The notes below the pieces were generated by a model. The model ran no database searches. It was given only the letters and a program-made list of their open reading frames with translations, and was not told the DNA's origin. Of a stretch of 64,000 nucleotides of DNA, positions 1-7,099 are shown one piece after another; the first letter of the stretch is position 1; every line of letters starts with the position of its first letter. The DNA is from Acidobacteriota bacterium (GTDB taxonomy: Bacteria; Acidobacteriota; UBA890; WLXD01). The position numbers and the translations under genes were made by a program. Where the stretch lies: the NCBI GenBank assembly GCA_963666055.2, contig CAXWPH010000002.1, forward strand, positions 224,001 through 288,000, in the 5' to 3' direction.

Positions 1-3000
1 GAGGCGTACGATGCCGCCCTCGCGCACCGTCATCCGGCCCAGCACGCCGGGGCGCGCGAACGTGCCGACGATCTGGAGGTCGACGGCTAGGCCGAGCTCT
101 GCGTAGGGGGTGTCGATACGGAGGTCGTCAACCGTGCTGACGCGTATGTCGTAGCTCAGGTCGTCAAGCGGCGTGGGCGAGGCGGACGCACGCGCTTGGG
201 TCGCGGCCGAGGCCCCCAGCAGGTCGGCCGCGAGAGCGGCGTCGGTGCGATAGCCACCCGCCAGCAGGCGTATTTCGCCAAAGGCCCGGAGGCTGCCCTG
301 CGGCGACGCGCTGATGGTCACGTCCGCGTCGCCGAGCGCCCGACCGCCGCCGCCCTCGACCACGATCGAGCGTGCGGTGATCCGGGCGAGCCCGGTGGGG
401 CGCATGGGATCGGCCAGGTCGAAGTCGAGAAACAGCATCGCCTCGCCACCGTTGACGATGCCGTGTAGCCCGTCGGTGTGTATCTGGGTGTCGGTGATCG
501 TCAGCGTGCCGTTGACGTCGCTCACCACGACCTGCGGATCAGCGACAATAAAACCGACGTCCGTGAGTACGATACGTCCGTCGAAGCTGGGCCGTGTCGC
601 CGTGCCGGTGATTTCGAGTGTGGCGTGTGCGCCCCCCTCGACTGCCCCAGCCTTGATCATCGGCACGATCCAGCCGAGCTGCAGCTGTGACTCGAGCCGC
701 AAATCGAGCTGCTGTCGATCACCGAGCTCGATTGCGCCCGTCACAATCAAACTGACTTCGTCCCCACCCGGCCGCGTCCATATCCAGTCGACGATACGCA
801 CTACTCCGTCTTCCAGGCGCAGTCGTGTCGGTCGAAGCTGGGACACTGTGATGCCGTTGCTGCTGAGCCTCAACGAGTCCAGCTGGAGATCTGCTCGGGC
901 GTCGGCGAGCTCCAATGTGGGCATAGCCACCTGCAGCGACAAGGTGGCCTCGCCGTCGAGCTCGGCGGTCAGCTCGGGACCCAGGAGCAACGCTAGCTCG
1001 GCGGCGCTTACGGGGCCGAGCCGAGCCCGCAATACTGCCGGCTCGGGTGCCGGCCGTTCGGTGTCTCCGACAAGCAGGGCCAGCGGGATCTCTGCATCGG
1101 CTTCCAGCTCGGCGCCTTGCCAGCGCCCTCGCAACTCTCCCAGATGCAAGCCGCGCCCGTCGACCGAGGCTTGCAGCTGTACGCCTTCGAGCGTCGTTGT
1201 GTTGTCGAGCTGTACTTCGCCGTCGACGATTCGAACTGATCCCTCGGGTTGCGGCTCCAACAGCGTACCGCCGACGTGCAGCTCGGCATCAAGATCTCCG
1301 GACAACACGACCCGTCGCGTGTCGGGCGCGCCGGTGGCGAGCGTCAGCCCCATCGTGGCCAGGTCAGAGAGCCGCGAAAGGTCTCCGCGCAACCGGCCGT
1401 GGAGACCCGGCAGGGCGGGATCGCTGCCCAGCACACCGGCAACCGATAGGTCGAGGTCGCCGACGCGCAGCGCCAAGTCCTCGATGCTCACCTCGGTCGG
1501 ACTCCACATCACCCGTCCGGGAATCACGCTGCGAACCGGGAATCGTGGTAGGTCCACGTACAACGACCAAAGGTCGACCACTATGGTCGATGTCGTAAGA
1601 TCGACGCCGAGAGCGACTTCGGCGCGGGCCGATTCAATGTAGGCGAGCTCCGGCCGATCACCGAGGTCGCCGGGTGCCGGCAGATCAAGCTCCCCCAGGA
1701 GGTCGATGTGCTTGCCGCCCGGGTCGATTACTCCGCTGACCTTTATCCGGTTGTTGCCGGCACTGGCAGTCAGTTCGTCGATGCGAATGCCGTGCGTGGC
1801 GGGCGACAAGCGAGCCCGCGCATCAATGGGTACGCCGCCGCCGATGCGAATGGCGTGCGCGTCGACGGTGCCCTCGATTCCCGGGAGAGGTAGTAGCCCC
1901 TGGAACGTCAGGTCCCAATCAAGCGATCCGCTGATGCCACCGCCGGCGACCAGTCGCTCGCCCAGCCGCACAGCGTCGAGGGCGGCTTCGAGATCGGTCA
2001 CATGGCCACGTACTCGTCCTGCGACGTGGCCACTGGCGTACAGCTCCAGGTCGGCTTCCATGGTGCCGCCAGGGAACTGCACCGACGCATCACGCAGGGT
2101 GATCGAATCGCCGCTTGTCGCGATGTCGGCGGCCGCCGTCAACCAACCCGCAGCGCCGAAACGAAGCTGCTCGACCCGAGCGTGCCCGGAGATCCGCGGT
2201 TCGAGCAAGGTTCCGGTGACAGCGAGCTCCGCCGTTGCTTGCCCATCTGCCGTGGCAAGCGCCTCCAGGAGATCGGGTGCAACGTCGCTGAGACGACGAG
2301 CCACCGAGCCAACGTTGTCGACGGTGAGGTGTGCCGTCCCGTCGAGAGTGCGGCCCTCGACAGCACCCGTCAGCTCGGCCCCGATCCACAGCCCCGCAGC
2401 TACGTCGACGTCGATGCTGGCGCGCCACACACCGGCGGACAAGACGGCCTCCAGGCGTCCATCGAGCGGTACCGCGTCCGCGTCCGGCGAGCTCTCGTTG
2501 AAGCTCATCAGCAAGGACGCGGTGGTGTCTGCGACTGCCGGTGCCAGCCCAGGCCACTCGGCGTGCGCCTCACCGCTCAGCCGTGTGGCGGGAACGATCC
2601 AGCCGGAGCCCGGTGCTGCGGCGAGTAGCCGTACGGGATCGACATCCTCCCACCTCACTACGAAGTGGCTCACCGTGCCCGCCGCGAGGCCGATGTGCAG
2701 GTCACCGGTGAGATCGCCGCCGCCGAGTTCGGCGCGCAGCGCATCGATGCGGATCGCCTGCTGGTCGGCCTGGATGTGACCGCGCAGTCGTCGCAGCGAC
2801 ACCCCCCTCGATGACGCCGTCTCGATATCCAGCATCATATCTACAGTCGGCGCCGGCGCCGGGCCGCTTAGCGGCCCCGCCACCGACAGCGCGCCGCCGG
2901 CGACGTCGAGCCCGACAAGTTCGCCTAGTGTGTCCAGCAGGACTTGCGTCCGGACCTCGAGCGCCAGCTCGCGGTCGGCAAGCAACCGTTCGATGGTGCC

Positions 3001-3663
3001 GTCGATCTCCAGGCGGGCTGCGGCGCTGTCGAAGCGCAGCTGGTCGATGCCCAAGTTGCGCCCGTCCCAGCTAAGCTGGCCTCCGGAGAGTTCGATCTGC
3101 GCTTGGCGGTCGGCGATGCGCAGACTTGCCGCACCCAGCATCTCGAGCTGTGGCTTTATCGCATCCCCGAGATCGAGCCGGATGTCGCCGGCGTCGAATT
3201 CATAGCCCGCCGCTGCATCGTGCCACTCGATTTGCAGCTCGGAGATACGCAGTCGCTTCACCGGCACCGGCGCGGCGACACTCATTCCGCCACTCTCGAA
3301 ATTACTGGTACCGTCTGCGGCCACGAAGACGGTGAGGCGTGGCCTTCTCAGCTCGATGTGCTGGAACGACAATCCGCGCCAGACGGAGCTCCACGGCAGA
3401 TCGAGGGTGAGCTCGTCGGCATCGAAATACGGGCGCTCCTGGCCCGGAGTGCGCAGTTGTAGCCCGTGCAATCGAAACCATAGTGTCGGTAGCCGGTAGT
3501 CGAGCCGATCAGCATGCACGCCCCCTTCGGGGGCGATCCGTGCCAGCACGGCAGCGAGCACGCGCGCCCGCGCCCACGGCGTGTGCAGGGCGGCGATTCC
3601 GGCGACCGCCGCTAGAGCCGCCAGAGCACAGAAGACCAACAACCGGCGGCGGCGACTCGACAT
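1..3663 (-). CDS. tamB: TamB/AsmA-like translocation and assembly module protein, 3'-partial (>1220 aa)
   Basis: Not in the ORF track because it has no stop in the window. ATG at 3663 gives MSSRRRRLLVFCALAALAAVAGIAALHTPWAR (N-terminal anchor). The end reads ...DTPYAELGLAVDLQIVGTFARPGVLGRMTVREGG, typical of the TamB C-terminal region. I spot-checked the frame in several segments; the long + strand ORFs here are its antisense shadows. Confidence 0.8.
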   Translation of the reverse strand, partial: MSSRRRRLLVFCALAALAAVAGIAALHTPWARARVLAAVLARIAPEGGVHADRLDYRLPTLWFRLHGLQLRTPGQERPYFDADELTLDLPWSSVWRGLSFQHIELRRPRLTVFVAADGTSNFESGGMSVAAPVPVKRLRISELQIEWHDAAAGYEFDAGDIRLDLGDAIKPQLEMLGAASLRIADRQAQIELSGGQLSWDGRNLGIDQLRFDSAAARLEIDGTIERLLADRELALEVRTQVLLDTLGELVGLDVAGGALSVAGPLSGPAPAPTVDMMLDIETASSRGVSLRRLRGHIQADQQAIRIDALRAELGGGDLTGDLHIGLAAGTVSHFVVRWEDVDPVRLLAAAPGSGWIVPATRLSGEAHAEWPGLAPAVADTTASLLMSFNESSPDADAVPLDGRLEAVLSAGVWRASIDVDVAAGLWIGAELTGAVEGRTLDGTAHLTVDNVGSVARRLSDVAPDLLEALATADGQATAELAVTGTLLEPRISGHARVEQLRFGAAGWLTAAADIATSGDSITLRDASVQFPGGTMEADLELYASGHVAGRVRGHVTDLEAALDAVRLGERLVAGGGISGSLDWDLTFQGLLPLPGIEGTVDAHAIRIGGGVPIDARARLSPATHGIRIDELTASAGNNRIKVSGVIDPGGKHIDLLGELDLPAPGDLGDRPELAYIESARAEVALGVDLTTSTIVVDLWSLYVDLPRFPVRSVIPGRVMWSPTEVSIEDLALRVGDLDLSVAGVLGSDPALPGLHGRLRGDLSRLSDLATMGLTLATGAPDTRRVVLSGDLDAELHVGGTLLEPQPEGSVRIVDGEVQLDNTTTLEGVQLQASVDGRGLHLGELRGRWQGAELEADAEIPLALLVGDTERPAPEPAVLRARLGPVSAAELALLLGPELTAELDGEATLSLQVAMPTLELADARADLQLDSLRLSSNGITVSQLRPTRLRLEDGVVRIVDWIWTRPGGDEVSLIVTGAIELGDRQQLDLRLESQLQLGWIVPMIKAGAVEGGAHATLEITGTATRPSFDGRIVLTDVGFIVADPQVVVSDVNGTLTITDTQIHTDGLHGIVNGGEAMLFLDFDLADPMRPTGLARITARSIVVEGGGGRALGDADVTISASPQGSLRAFGEIRLLAGGYRTDAALAADLLGASAATQARASASPTPLDDLSYDIRVSTVDDLRIDTPYAELGLAVDLQIVGTFARPGVLGRMTVREGGIVRL

Positions 3664-3703
3664 GCGTATCATTCTGCCAAATCCTCGTTTGCGGAGTCTG
3701 ACC

Positions 3704-4247
3704 ATGGAAACGGCCTGGATCGATACCCTCAGCGACGAAAGCGCCTCTCCGGAGCTCGCCAAGCTGTACGATCGTGCGCTCGACCCTGTCTCCGGCGAGC
3801 TCGACAACGTCCTCCGGGTGCACTCGCTGCACGCCGCTGGACTCAGCGCCCACCTCGAGCTCTATACCGCGGTGATGCGCGGTACACCCGGGCTGCGCAC
3901 CGTCGAGCGCGAGATGATCGCGCTCGACGGTGTCGCAGTTGAACGGCTGCGGCTACTGAATCACCCATCACCGGCGTGGTTTACGCCGGCTGCTGCGCGA
4001 CGACGAGCTCGCTGGTCGCATCGAGTCGAACTACCAGAATGCGGATCTCGGCGGCCGTCGCCTGGCTATGCTGTGCTTTACGGAGAAGCTCACGCTGCGC
4101 CCCTCAGAGATGCAACGCGCCGACGTGCTCGCCTTGCGTGCGGCTGGCTTCGGCGACCCGGACATTCTGGGCATCGTCGAGGTAGTCTCCTACTATGCCT
4201 ACGTGAACCGCATCGCTGACGGTCTGGGAGTTGCACTTGAAGCCTGA
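3704..4247 (+). CDS. AhpD/CMD-like peroxidase-related protein, predicted selenoprotein (CxxU); interrupted by a +1 frameshift at ~3925
   Basis: METAWIDTL...EREMIAL, then after a 1-nt shift TVSQLNGCGY-TGA(3957-3959)-ITHHRRGLRRLL...EKLTLRP...GIVEVVSYYAYVNRIADGLGVALEA-TGA(4245-4247). Together about 180 aa with AhpD-family motifs on both sides of the TGA. Confidence 0.85.
3971..3989 (+). promoter_or_regulatory. Putative bacterial SECIS element
   Basis: Perfect 7-bp stem CCGGCGT-GGTTT-ACGCCGG starting 11 nt after the in-frame TGA, with G in the apical loop. Confidence 0.75.
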
Positions 4248-4809
4248 TCCGCCGCTGCTGACGATGGTGCCGGAATGGCGCCACGAAGATGATTCGGTGA
4301 TCGCCGAGACCCGGATCTTCACGCTGCGTCGCCGACTGGGCGTGTCGCCAAGCCGGCCGGAGCAGCCTGGCGAATTCTTCTATATCGACTCCGCTGACTG
4401 GGTGAACGTGATCGCCTTGACGGCGGCGAACGAAGTGGTGGCGATCGAGCAGTTCCGGCATGGCAACGGCGAGGTCACGCTGGAGATTCCCGGCGGCATG
4501 GTCGACCCTGGCGAGGAGCCCCTGGTGGCGGGGGTGCGCGAGCTGGCCGAGGAAACCGGCTACGCTGGTCACGGGGCGCACCTGATAGGTAAGGCGACCC
4601 CGAATCCGGCGATCTTCAACAATTACTGCCATACGGTGCTGGTGCGCGACGCGGTCGCAGCACATGCGCCGACCCCAGAGCTACACGAGGAGATCGGCAT
4701 CCGTTTGCTGCCGCTGGCGCAGATTCCCGAGCTCATCACCGCCGGTGTGATCCATCATGCGATGGTGGTCACCGCGTTCCACTTTCTCGCCCTCCAGGGA
4801 ACCAAGTGA
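4237..4809 (+). CDS. NUDIX hydrolase (ADP-ribose pyrophosphatase-like)
   Basis: Nudix box GGMVDPGEEPLVAGVRELAEETGY; TTG start at 4231 or 4237. Confidence 0.92.
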   Translation: MKPDPPLLTMVPEWRHEDDSVIAETRIFTLRRRLGVSPSRPEQPGEFFYIDSADWVNVIALTAANEVVAIEQFRHGNGEVTLEIPGGMVDPGEEPLVAGVRELAEETGYAGHGAHLIGKATPNPAIFNNYCHTVLVRDAVAAHAPTPELHEEIGIRLLPLAQIPELITAGVIHHAMVVTAFHFLALQGTK

Positions 4810-5759
4810 CGCCGCTGAGCCGGCACCCGAAGCGCGTGGCGTTGAGCGTGGCGACGATCAGCGCCATGGTTCTGGCGTGCCAGCCACCCCCTGGCGACCT
4901 GCGCATTGCTTGGGCGCCGGTGGAGTCGTTCAACCGCGGGTTGCCAGACCGGATTCGTGTGTATGCTGGCGCCGATCCCAGCATCCCGTTACGCGCTTGG
5001 TACGTAAGGGTGCAGCGACACAGCGGCGGCCAGCTCGCCCGGGTATCGATCTCCACCGACGACGACGGCGTGGAGACGATTTCGGAGTTCGCGGCCCGGA
5101 CATCGGCGCGTGTGGTCATTAACGCGGGATTCTTCCGCACCGACACCGAGCTACCGCAACACATCGGCCTCTTGCTGATCGATCAAGTGCTCCTACAGCG
5201 GCCGCTGACGTCGGTCATCTACGACGAGCAGCGCTACTACGTGGCACGTGCGGCGCTCGGTTTGATGCTTGACGGTTCGGCTGACGTTCTCTGGGTCACC
5301 GGACACGAAGGCTTGCTTTACGAACAATCGGAGCCACCGCAGAATGTGCCGAACGCGCCGGCGGCGGAACCGCAGGCTGATTCCTTGGTCGAGTGGCCGG
5401 TGCGCGACGCGGTAGCCGGGGGGCCGGTCCTGGTTGACGCTGGTGAGGTGCGAGTCACGAGTCATCAAGAAGTTTTCTTTGGCACCGCTAGCGAAGAGGC
5501 GCATCCGCGCTCAGCGGCGGGCGTAACCGCCGCGGGAGAGTTGATCGTCATAGTGGTCGATGGTCGCCAACGGGAGAGCCGTGGGGTAGATCTGCGGGAG
5601 CTGGCCGAGCTGATGCGCGACGTCGGCTGCGTCGAGGCGCTCAATCTCGACGGCGGTGGATCGTCGACGCTGGTCGTTGACGGCGCACTGGTAAACCGGC
5701 CGCTGGGGAGTGAGTCGCAGCGCGAGGTCATGTCGGCGCTGATGGTCATGGAACCTTGA
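4806..5759 (+). CDS. Phosphodiester glycosidase family (NAGPA-like) exported protein
   Basis: INAGFF, HPRSAAG, VVDGRQ and ALNLDGGGSS motifs; N-terminal signal or lipobox-like segment. Confidence 0.9.
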   Translation: MTPLSRHPKRVALSVATISAMVLACQPPPGDLRIAWAPVESFNRGLPDRIRVYAGADPSIPLRAWYVRVQRHSGGQLARVSISTDDDGVETISEFAARTSARVVINAGFFRTDTELPQHIGLLLIDQVLLQRPLTSVIYDEQRYYVARAALGLMLDGSADVLWVTGHEGLLYEQSEPPQNVPNAPAAEPQADSLVEWPVRDAVAGGPVLVDAGEVRVTSHQEVFFGTASEEAHPRSAAGVTAAGELIVIVVDGRQRESRGVDLRELAELMRDVGCVEALNLDGGGSSTLVVDGALVNRPLGSESQREVMSALMVMEP

Positions 5760-5797
5760 AGGCCTGCCGGGCCGCTGAAGATGGAGGGGATCAGACA

Positions 5798-7099
5798 ATG
5801 TCGAGGCGTTTTTGGTCGGTGGCGGTGTCGGGGTGGCTCGTGGTTGTTGCGGGGTGCTCCGCGCCTGAGCCGATCGAGGTTACTGAAGCCGATTTTGGGG
5901 CTGTGGCGCGTGGCATCCACGAGCGCGTCATCACTATCGATACTCACGACGACATCCCCGCGAGCTTTGCCACCACCGAGGTCGATCCGGGCGTTCGTGG
6001 CGATCGGCAGGTCGACCTGCCCAAGATGCGCGAGGGCGGCCTCGATGTGGCGTTCTTCGTCGTCTTCGTGGGTCAAGGCGACAACGACGCCGCCGGATAC
6101 ACTGGTGCCTACGAACAGGCGATGACGAAGTTCGAAGCGATCCATCGGCTGACCGAGCAGATGCACCCGGACTTGATCGAGCTGGCCACCAGCGCCGCTG
6201 ATGTGGAGCGCATCGTTGGCGAGGGCAAGCTGGTGGCGGCGATCGGTATCGAGAACGGCTGGCCGGTGGGCGAGGACCTGACGAACGTCGCCAAGTTCCA
6301 CGAGCTGGGTGGAGGCTATTTCGGATTGGTACACAACGGGCACAACCAGATCGCCGACTCCACCAATCCGCGCGACGGCGAGCCCGCCGAGCTGCACGGT
6401 GGCGTGAGCGACTATGGCGCCGAGGTGATCGCCGAGGTCAACCGCGTGGGCATGATGATCGACGTGTCGCACGCCTCCAAGGCAGCCATGCTCGAGGCCC
6501 TGGAGCTGTCTCAGGCGCCAGTGATCGGGTCGCACTCGGGATGCAGCGCGCTGTGCGATGTGAGCCGCAACATGGATGACGAGCAGCTGCTGGCCCTGAG
6601 GGAGAACGGTGGCGTGATTCAGATGGTTGCGCTCGGTGACTTCGTGAAGATCACGTCGGAGCGCGAGGCGGCCATCGACGAGCTGGCGCGCGAGATCGCC
6701 GGCATGGACAGCATGCGGGCGCTACGCCGTAGCCGTTTCTCCGCCCCCGAGGAGGAGCGTCCTGCGATCGAGCTGCAGCTGGCCGAGATTCAGGCGAGAG
6801 TGGTGGCGGAGGTCGATCCCGTGTATCCAGCGGCGAGCGTCGCCGACTTTGTCGATCACATCGACCACGCCGTGAACCTGATCGGTCTCGAGCATGTCGG
6901 TATCAGCTCCGACTTCGACGGCGGCGGTGGCGTGGTCGGCTGGAACGACGCCAGCGAGACCCTGAACGTGACGCTGGAGCTTGTCCAACGTGGCTATAGC
7001 GAGGACGAGATCCGCGCTCTCTGGGGCGGTAACCTGCTGCGCGTTTGGCGTGAGGTAGAGGAGGTGGCGCGGAGCATGCAGGCGTCGGGAGCTAGCTGA
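5798..7099 (+). CDS. Membrane dipeptidase (peptidase M19), lipoprotein
   Basis: IDTHDD, IENG, DVSH, SHS and GISSDFDGG motifs; lipobox VAGC; SD-like GGAGG upstream. Confidence 0.92.
   Translation: MSRRFWSVAVSGWLVVVAGCSAPEPIEVTEADFGAVARGIHERVITIDTHDDIPASFATTEVDPGVRGDRQVDLPKMREGGLDVAFFVVFVGQGDNDAAGYTGAYEQAMTKFEAIHRLTEQMHPDLIELATSAADVERIVGEGKLVAAIGIENGWPVGEDLTNVAKFHELGGGYFGLVHNGHNQIADSTNPRDGEPAELHGGVSDYGAEVIAEVNRVGMMIDVSHASKAAMLEALELSQAPVIGSHSGCSALCDVSRNMDDEQLLALRENGGVIQMVALGDFVKITSEREAAIDELAREIAGMDSMRALRRSRFSAPEEERPAIELQLAEIQARVVAEVDPVYPAASVADFVDHIDHAVNLIGLEHVGISSDFDGGGGVVGWNDASETLNVTLELVQRGYSEDEIRALWGGNLLRVWREVEEVARSMQASGAS

Follow-up and report, generated by a model that had tools for sequence, protein, structure and literature searches.

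An AhpD-like CxxU selenoprotein gene in an Acidobacteriota genome, probably a recent pseudogene with a frameshift likely made by template switching

AhpD-like proteins with a CxxU motif are an already catalogued selenoprotein family. The Sargasso Sea data of 2005 contained 27 sequences of an 'AhpD-like protein, CxxU' (PMC1088965), and in 2008 'AhpD-like 1' was among the most abundant GOS families, with 299 (PMC2398784). The family is listed with TIGR01926 in a 2026 review (PMC13188914) and with COG2128 in PMC9312934. The passages that deal with it in PMC1088965, PMC2398784 and PMC13188914 describe it as computationally predicted and report no assay of a Sec form. Among the Cys-containing proteins, AhpD of M. 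tuberculosis is the reducing adaptor of AhpC (PMC3141380, PMC6300522), and PA0269, with the relay residues E36, C48, Y50, C51 and H55, has a weak cysteine-dependent peroxidase activity (PMC3141380). The bacterial SECIS model requires a loop of 3–5 nt, a stem of 7–8 bp, a G followed by G or U at the start of the loop and a distance of 18–19 nt from the UGA (PMC13188914 Fig 2A). In quasipalindrome template switching an imperfect inverted repeat is turned into a perfect one; Ripley 1982 and the E. coli thyA hotspot are cited for this type of mutation (PMC7202029, PMC5941160).

The window analysed here is a stretch of 64,000 nucleotides from the genome of an Acidobacteriota bacterium (G000; contig CAXWPH010000002.1, positions 224,001 to 288,000, forward strand). 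The initial annotation placed a hidden AhpD-like CxxU selenoprotein at 3704–4247, and all the elements it described are present where it put them: TGC GGC TAC TGA at 3948–3959, which reads C-G-Y-UGA (the CxxU motif), the hairpin CCGGCGT-GGTTT-ACGCCGG at 3971–3989, the first base of which lies 11 nt past the TGA, and 95 codons that stay open after the TGA up to the TGA at 4245–4247. The assignment to the family and the Sec codon by descent stand, but the 544 nt of 3704–4247 are not one reading frame, as a +1 shift at 3926–3928 separates the frame of the UGA from the one that starts with ATG 3704. The ATG frame holds 74 AhpD-like codons and then unrelated sequence until the stop at 4217–4219; upstream of the UGA, its own frame has just 13 open codons. 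The two halves match TIGR01926 in different frames, at positions 2–71 and 84–173. Our reading, to which we give a probability of about 0.76, is that this gene (copy A) is a CxxU member of TIGR01926 with a UGA predicted to be read as Sec by means of the hairpin, that its +1 frameshift likely arose by template switching, and that it is probably a recent pseudogene. The features of the locus are as follows.

3693..3696, plus strand: Shine-Dalgarno-like GGAG, 7 nt before the ATG; putative function, from sequence
3704..3925, plus strand: N-terminal 74 codons of copy A, with the codon of the proton-relay Glu70 at 3911–3913; TIGR01926 positions 2–71, 98.6% identical to the sister genome G002
3898..3912, no strand: left arm of the perfect 15-bp inverted repeat, likely the template of the mutation; from repeat comparison
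3918..3932, no strand: right arm of the inverted repeat, after a 5-nt spacer at 3913–3917; only 8 bp perfect in G002
3926..3928, plus strand: GAC in place of CT (G002) or GT (G001), a net +1 frameshift that completes the inverted repeat; from comparison of contigs and relatives
3948..3959, plus strand: CxxU motif with Cys82, Tyr84 and Sec85 (numbering of the intact G002 ortholog); from sequence and alignment
3971..3989, plus strand: SECIS-type hairpin, 7–8 bp stem, GGUUU loop from 19 nt after the UGA, −12.1 kcal/mol; from folding, conservation and covariation
3960..4247, plus strand: C-terminal 95 codons and stop, with the codon of the relay His89 at 3969–3971, out of frame with the start; TIGR01926 84–173, E 1.5e-19
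3926..4219, plus strand: shifted frame reached from ATG 3704, 97 unrelated codons ending at TGA 4217–4219; by translation a 171-aa product that lacks the CxxU

A Pfam search with the 171-aa shifted-frame product gave no match, and a search for a sigma-70-like promoter in 3500–4400 found none. The sole RNA run with any part of the stretch, X20, covers 4282–4350, outside the gene. Copy A has a Nudix hydrolase and a phosphodiester glycosidase as neighbours. They belong to a downstream run on the same strand (window 4264–7099) formed by the Nudix hydrolase (4264–4809), the phosphodiester glycosidase (PF09992, 4806–5759) and a dipeptidase-like ORF (5756–7099, labelled by eye), and the first two are also found with copy A in 16 loci of closely related genomes. 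Across 109 loci no conserved redox partner was found beside the gene, and neighbours recur within kin groups only. On the minus strand, window 1–3673 is taken up by a divergent ORF of >1200 aa that runs off the window and resembles, by eye, an AsmA/TamB-type envelope protein.

Family membership was assessed on the intact ortholog of the sister genome G002, which scores 128.2 bits against TIGR01926 (cut-off 81.8); the UGA-frame part of the window alone reaches 83.4 bits and the N-terminal half an E value of 7.7e-4. In the alignment to Cys homologs proposed by the initial annotation, the UGA, codon 85 of the G002 ortholog, falls on the second Cys of the CxxC motif in PDB 3c1l and 6k40 (E 1.7e-27 to 3c1l). 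TGA stands at this codon in 29/29 scorable loci of related genomes (30 loci, with L052 unscored as it is cut by a contig end). Among 23 further, more distant loci, 17 have TGA, 4 are Cys-type with the Cys aligned at the UGA position, and 2 (L066 and L067, both dropped) have an unresolved motif. In the 80 best GTDB loci the position is TGA in all 80 and never TAA or TAG; their records come from Acidobacteriota, Actinomycetota, Planctomycetota, Gemmatimonadota and others, and the closest two (85% and 82%) are from Acidobacteriota. From these comparisons we take the UGA to be, by descent, a codon for selenocysteine. The proposal that it is read as selenocysteine agrees with the TGA of the 80 GTDB homologs and with the alignment with Cys, but in this copy the UGA is out of frame from ATG 3704. 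A functional gene needs one continuous frame from the start through the UGA to the stop, and copy A does not have it; because of this, copy A is filed as a broken member of the family by descent and not as a working selenoprotein gene.

Two neighbouring classes do not take in this gene. Against NF041238 (AhpD_rel_CFYUT, a 357-position model) the score is 42.1 bits, under the 175-bit cut-off, so that it is not a member. The ortholog scores 23.3 bits against the ahpD model TIGR00777, far under the cut-off of 191.95, no ahpC is adjacent, and it is not an AhpD of the M. tuberculosis type. Judged by these scores and its predicted relay, the copy A family would work like AhpD and lies outside the TIGR00777 subfamily. 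Some homologs depart from the usual motif. L072 (G022:C33:8708-9160) is divergent and reads GGAP-UGA, with the TGA and the hairpin kept and the first Cys of the CxxU lost. The Cys-type homologs L063 (G051, TRYC) and L065 (G038, SSYC) retain only the second Cys, a pattern consistent with the second Cys position being the essential one.

The hairpin behind the UGA agrees with all four constraints of the bacterial SECIS model as drawn in PMC13188914 Fig 2A. Its stability was tried as evidence and rejected, as it is not significant for this sequence: the z score is −0.45 when 50 nt are folded and −2.37 for a 31-nt segment trimmed to the hairpin, not clearly beyond chance, comparison with synonymous shuffles gives p=0.18, and folding energy reaches p<0.05 against such shuffles in only 4/46 Sec loci. 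Position is more regular. A G-led loop starting at +16 to +28 from the UGA is found in 45/46 loci, where synonymous shuffles predict 16.1 and other codons 8.6; if a stem of at least 7 bp is also required, 35/46 remain, against an expected 2.5 and 1.1, respectively. This excess is descriptive, since the thresholds were set with the data in view and the loci are related by descent. Among 12 close homologs all cells pair (100%), two-sided changes occur at 2 pairs, and the score is reached by 8/500 shuffles; in a second register, with 12 hand-picked homologs, 95% pair, with two-sided changes at 3 pairs and a score reached by 0/500 shuffles. The loop Gly codon is GGT in 74/77 GTDB loci, as compared with 117/703 other Gly codons. 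The hairpin is therefore conserved and covarying in UGA-containing relatives, as the initial annotation expected of a real element, and its register is kept in 77/77 scored GTDB homologs. Based on conservation and covariation across homologs, we regard it as a conserved SECIS-type element. The TTA codon within it, which had been put forward as a further sign, is indeed rare (0.88% of the Leu codons in 2308 long ORFs of G000), but the next Leu codon is CTG in all 77 GTDB homologs, so that TTA is not needed for the hairpin; as a SECIS signature it was rejected, being present in 2/12 close relatives and 0/77 GTDB homologs.

The Sec trait that the initial annotation assumed for this organism was borne out, as selA, selB, selC and selD are all found in the genome. 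In profile searches selA, selB and selD are each above their cut-off, and tRNA-Sec(UCA), the product of selC, is encoded twice (C6:7932-8029 and C13:66090-66187; 97/98 nt identical). Each tRNA-Sec gene lies at the end of an 8-kb stretch that the beginning of C6 shares with C13:58156-66188 at 99.9% identity, and an integrase-like ORF (by eye) lies beside the tRNA; the stretch is probably either a mobile element that inserted at selC or an overlap between contigs of the assembly. SelD (G000:C2:114268-115182, L011) forms the end of a 758-codon frame with an N-terminal FAD-oxidoreductase-like fusion (by eye) and reads CAGCGSK, with no Sec codon. A scan of G000 for motif plus hairpin gave 16 candidates; of the 10 examined, 1 is spurious, and in the other 9 the UGA region matches redox families or families of known selenoproteins. 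Candidates on C5, C6, C12, C14 and C15 (L191-L200) include deiodinase-like, several Trx/Prx-like, two DsrE-like, PrdB-like, DUF3179 and UGSC proteins, the last two being already listed selenoprotein families. Also, 8/17 AhpC-TSA matches in G000 hold one TGA. By its predicted gene content G000 is a selenoprotein-rich genome with the Sec trait.

The same association is seen in other hosts. Where a relative carries a TIGR01926 copy with the TGA, its genome has selA or selB in 33/33 cases and both in 28, a count that leaves out the unpublished G047. Six near-complete relatives lack selA and selB, and of these only G051 has family members, three in number and none with a stop; one, as read, has Cys at the Sec position. 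For the GTDB homologs, 50 of the 80 hosts were tested, chosen with a preference for longer contigs; 48 have selA, 46 have selB and 49 have one or both. Non-Sec recoding, with UGA genes in hosts devoid of Sec machinery, was considered and is not supported: only G094 (1/50), for which completeness is not on record, lacks both selA and selB.

The frameshift lies 30 nt upstream of the UGA. Where G000 reads CTC GAC G GTG, G002 reads CTC CTG GTG and G001 CTC GTG GTG. G000 and G002 are 92.9% identical over 278 kb (7% of sites differ), and about 98% identical in copy A. The extra base is absent from G001-G004, from two X8 contigs of related strains and from L189 and L190; in all 28 of the remaining relative loci that could be scored, 84 or more codons ahead of the UGA are open, and the shift occurs in no other homolog. 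A metagenome scan for an independent shifted allele, from which near-identical records may be omitted, returned 2 matches, both of them intact relatives. After the break, copy A has 3 amino-acid changes compared with 1 in G002, and one of them, Arg124Cys, is also found in the intact homolog L190; clear decay or relaxed selection after the break was not seen, with too few changes to tell. Ribosomes that start at 3704 never meet the UGA in frame, and therefore copy A probably makes no selenoprotein. From the sequence comparison, copy A is most likely a recent pseudogene.

At the shift, 3898–3912 and 3918–3932 form a perfect 15-bp inverted repeat in G000, of which 8 bp are perfect in G002 and 5 bp in G001, G003 and G004. 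Perfect inverted repeats of this kind number only 17 in 5.73 Mb. Out of 340 possible replacements of 1–4 bases in the G002 context, a single one gives an arm of at least 15 (1/64 three-base replacements, 0/276 of other lengths). Among 3379 multi-base differences between G000 and G002, 2 fall within an arm of this kind in G000, the present one and another in an 18-bp repeat, and 0 in G002. It is uncertain whether the ancestral letters were CT or GT, and the change completes the repeat either way. The derived allele shows the defining outcome of quasipalindrome template switching, and from the letters of the two arms an origin in a single step is likely. During replication the growing strand would have turned back on itself within the quasi-palindrome 3898–3932, the left arm would have been copied into the right arm, and one base would have been added. 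Palindromic elements of the CTAGTGGCCTG type and the GGCCGTGGTGGAAGT type recur among the 17 perfect inverted repeats (C2:263014, window ~39014; C6:153555; C7:203926). Some of these elements coincide with indels relative to G002, and they are possibly REP-like repeats.

A sequencing or assembly error would leave the living organism with an intact 180-aa AhpD-like selenoprotein, and the pristine state of the SECIS and of the remainder of copy A would fit this. The 15-contig assembly does have other one-base indels. The formate dehydrogenase alpha selenoprotein gene fdnG (G000:C3:76500-79500, L098, L099), intact in 4/4 congeners, is interrupted near 78403, where TT has become TTT; this one-base insertion is either an assembly error or a real loss. 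In view of it and of further single-base indels in G000 relative to G002, the assembly may in general contain indel errors. ORFs flagged as frameshifted between G000 and G002 number 41/218, but a genome-wide frameshift rate cannot be used because most of those flagged are, by eye, shadow ORFs or start extensions. A run of >20 G at G000:C2:276831 (window ~52831), absent in G002, is a possible assembly artefact or a variable tract. At copy A, however, contigs of the runs X1, X2 and X3, from three samples and two studies, span 3600–4350 with 0 differences from the window and with no gap, and a replacement of 2 by 3 bases that copies the opposite arm exactly is not a homopolymer slip. The platform and library of X1-X3 are not on record, so that they may share data or platform with the assembly and are possibly its source, and neither X5 nor X6 spans the shift. 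An artefact is unlikely but still the most probable of the rival explanations. The frameshift could also be real and have come from an ordinary substitution and an independent insertion, with the perfect repeat a coincidence. Only one of each is needed if the ancestral letters were GT, as in G001 and L190, and the two genomes differ at 7% of sites; on the other side, such a route requires an intermediate, none of which is seen among the loci examined, and the possible replacements perfect the repeat with the rarity given above (1/64 of three bases, 0/276 of other lengths). We hold this for quite improbable.

Two further explanations concern how the gene is translated. Ribosomes might get past the shift, either through a +1 frameshift of their own at the new hairpin or through a restart at GTG 3930, which lies in the UGA frame, with the selenoprotein still being made. 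The intact SECIS and C-terminal half suit this, as does the RNA hairpin of −31 kcal/mol that now covers the frameshift site. Yet a bypass is very improbable given that no other homolog has the shift (all 28 of the other relative loci that were scorable have 84 or more open codons), that by eye the site has no slippery run, and that a restart product would lack Glu70 and have its start buried in the hairpin. The least probable explanation, which we hardly credit, makes the UGA a true stop across the family and the halves separate genes. ATG or GTG directly follows the TGA in some homologs, and TGA is the commonest stop in G000 (1502/2847), but many of the next codons are not starts (ACC, ACG, CGG, GCA), TAA and TAG never replace TGA in the 80 GTDB loci, and the UGA sits exactly on the catalytic Cys, co-occurs with selA/selB and is followed by a covarying SECIS. 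The preferred reading thus remains that of a Sec-codon family member with a real, likely templated frameshift.

A second AhpD-like CxxU gene, copy B (C3:186128-186664; L053, L096), is intact in G000 and has its own hairpin, with the SECIS loop at +25. It is divergently transcribed from a gene for cysteine dioxygenase type I (PF05995, E 2.6e-20), and in a tree of 45 C-terminal halves, which leaves out the copy B of G002, the copy B group is separate from copy A. In the assembly sequence of G002 the situation is reversed: copy A is intact and copy B is broken by a 25-nt deletion downstream of the UGA (C5, L054 around 2268) that shifts the frame. As intact copy B remains in G000, the loss of copy A is likely tolerated. 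Tentatively, and with some doubt, we hypothesize that template switching knocked out copy A here while the 25-nt deletion lost copy B in G002, that these ancient CxxU paralogs (~38% identical) are functionally redundant, and that the conserved E-R-E-M-I-A-L stretch is a built-in quasi-palindromic mutation hotspot of the family.

With regard to function, the residues E70, C82, Y84, U85 and H89, which make up a Glu/Cys/Cys(Sec)/His relay, are all present. In intact relatives the GGU loop would be recognized by SelB with Sec-tRNA, and Sec would be incorporated at codon 85, as in the established pathway. The intact 180-aa protein would then act as a thiol/selenol-disulfide oxidoreductase by way of Glu70-Cys82-Tyr84-Sec85-His89, an activity predicted by analogy with PA0269 and M. 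tuberculosis AhpD. In copy A, translation from 3704 leaves the frame before the CxxU and stops at 4219. As only 28 nt separate the end of the shifted frame from the former stop, the downstream Nudix gene is presumably little affected, a second reason why the loss is likely tolerated.

Taken together, the initial annotation made a correct Sec-codon call on an ordinary family; the copy itself is most likely dead, and the likely templated frameshift is its only distinctive feature. For annotation, this means that a UGA, a SECIS and Sec machinery are not proof of a live gene, and that the frame must be followed back as far as the start codon. In terms of mutation biology, the locus is a natural and clean trace of template switching by which a gene appears to have been silenced; a limited literature search for natural template-switch pseudogenes in selenoprotein genes found none. 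The reciprocal break of paralogs in the sister species hints at redundancy in the AhpD-like CxxU family.

Compared with the described systems, the locus shares with the AhpD-like CxxU family the TIGR01926 score (of the G002 ortholog), the CxxU, a SECIS inside the coding sequence and the Sec machinery of the host, and it differs in that copy A is frameshifted before the motif. A bulged U in the upper stem is a feature of the fdhF SECIS. The hairpin of copy A lacks this U but otherwise resembles the bacterial SECIS of the E. coli fdhF type in its loop, its stem, the start of its loop and its distance from the UGA, with a folding energy of −12.1 kcal/mol. The relay spacing equals that of PA0269 (2o4d) among the Cys-type AhpD and peroxidase-related proteins (PDB 3c1l, 6k40, 2pfx, 2oyo and 2prr; M. 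tuberculosis AhpD), whereas the copy A family has Sec in place of the second Cys. Sec would here replace the equivalent of Cys133, which we take to be the attacking thiolate. Finally, as in known quasipalindrome template switches, a multi-base change in one arm perfects an imperfect inverted repeat and brings a frameshift with it; in contrast to thyA-type cases, which come from a reporter assay, the case in G000 is a natural allele of an uncultured bacterium, recognized by sequence comparison.
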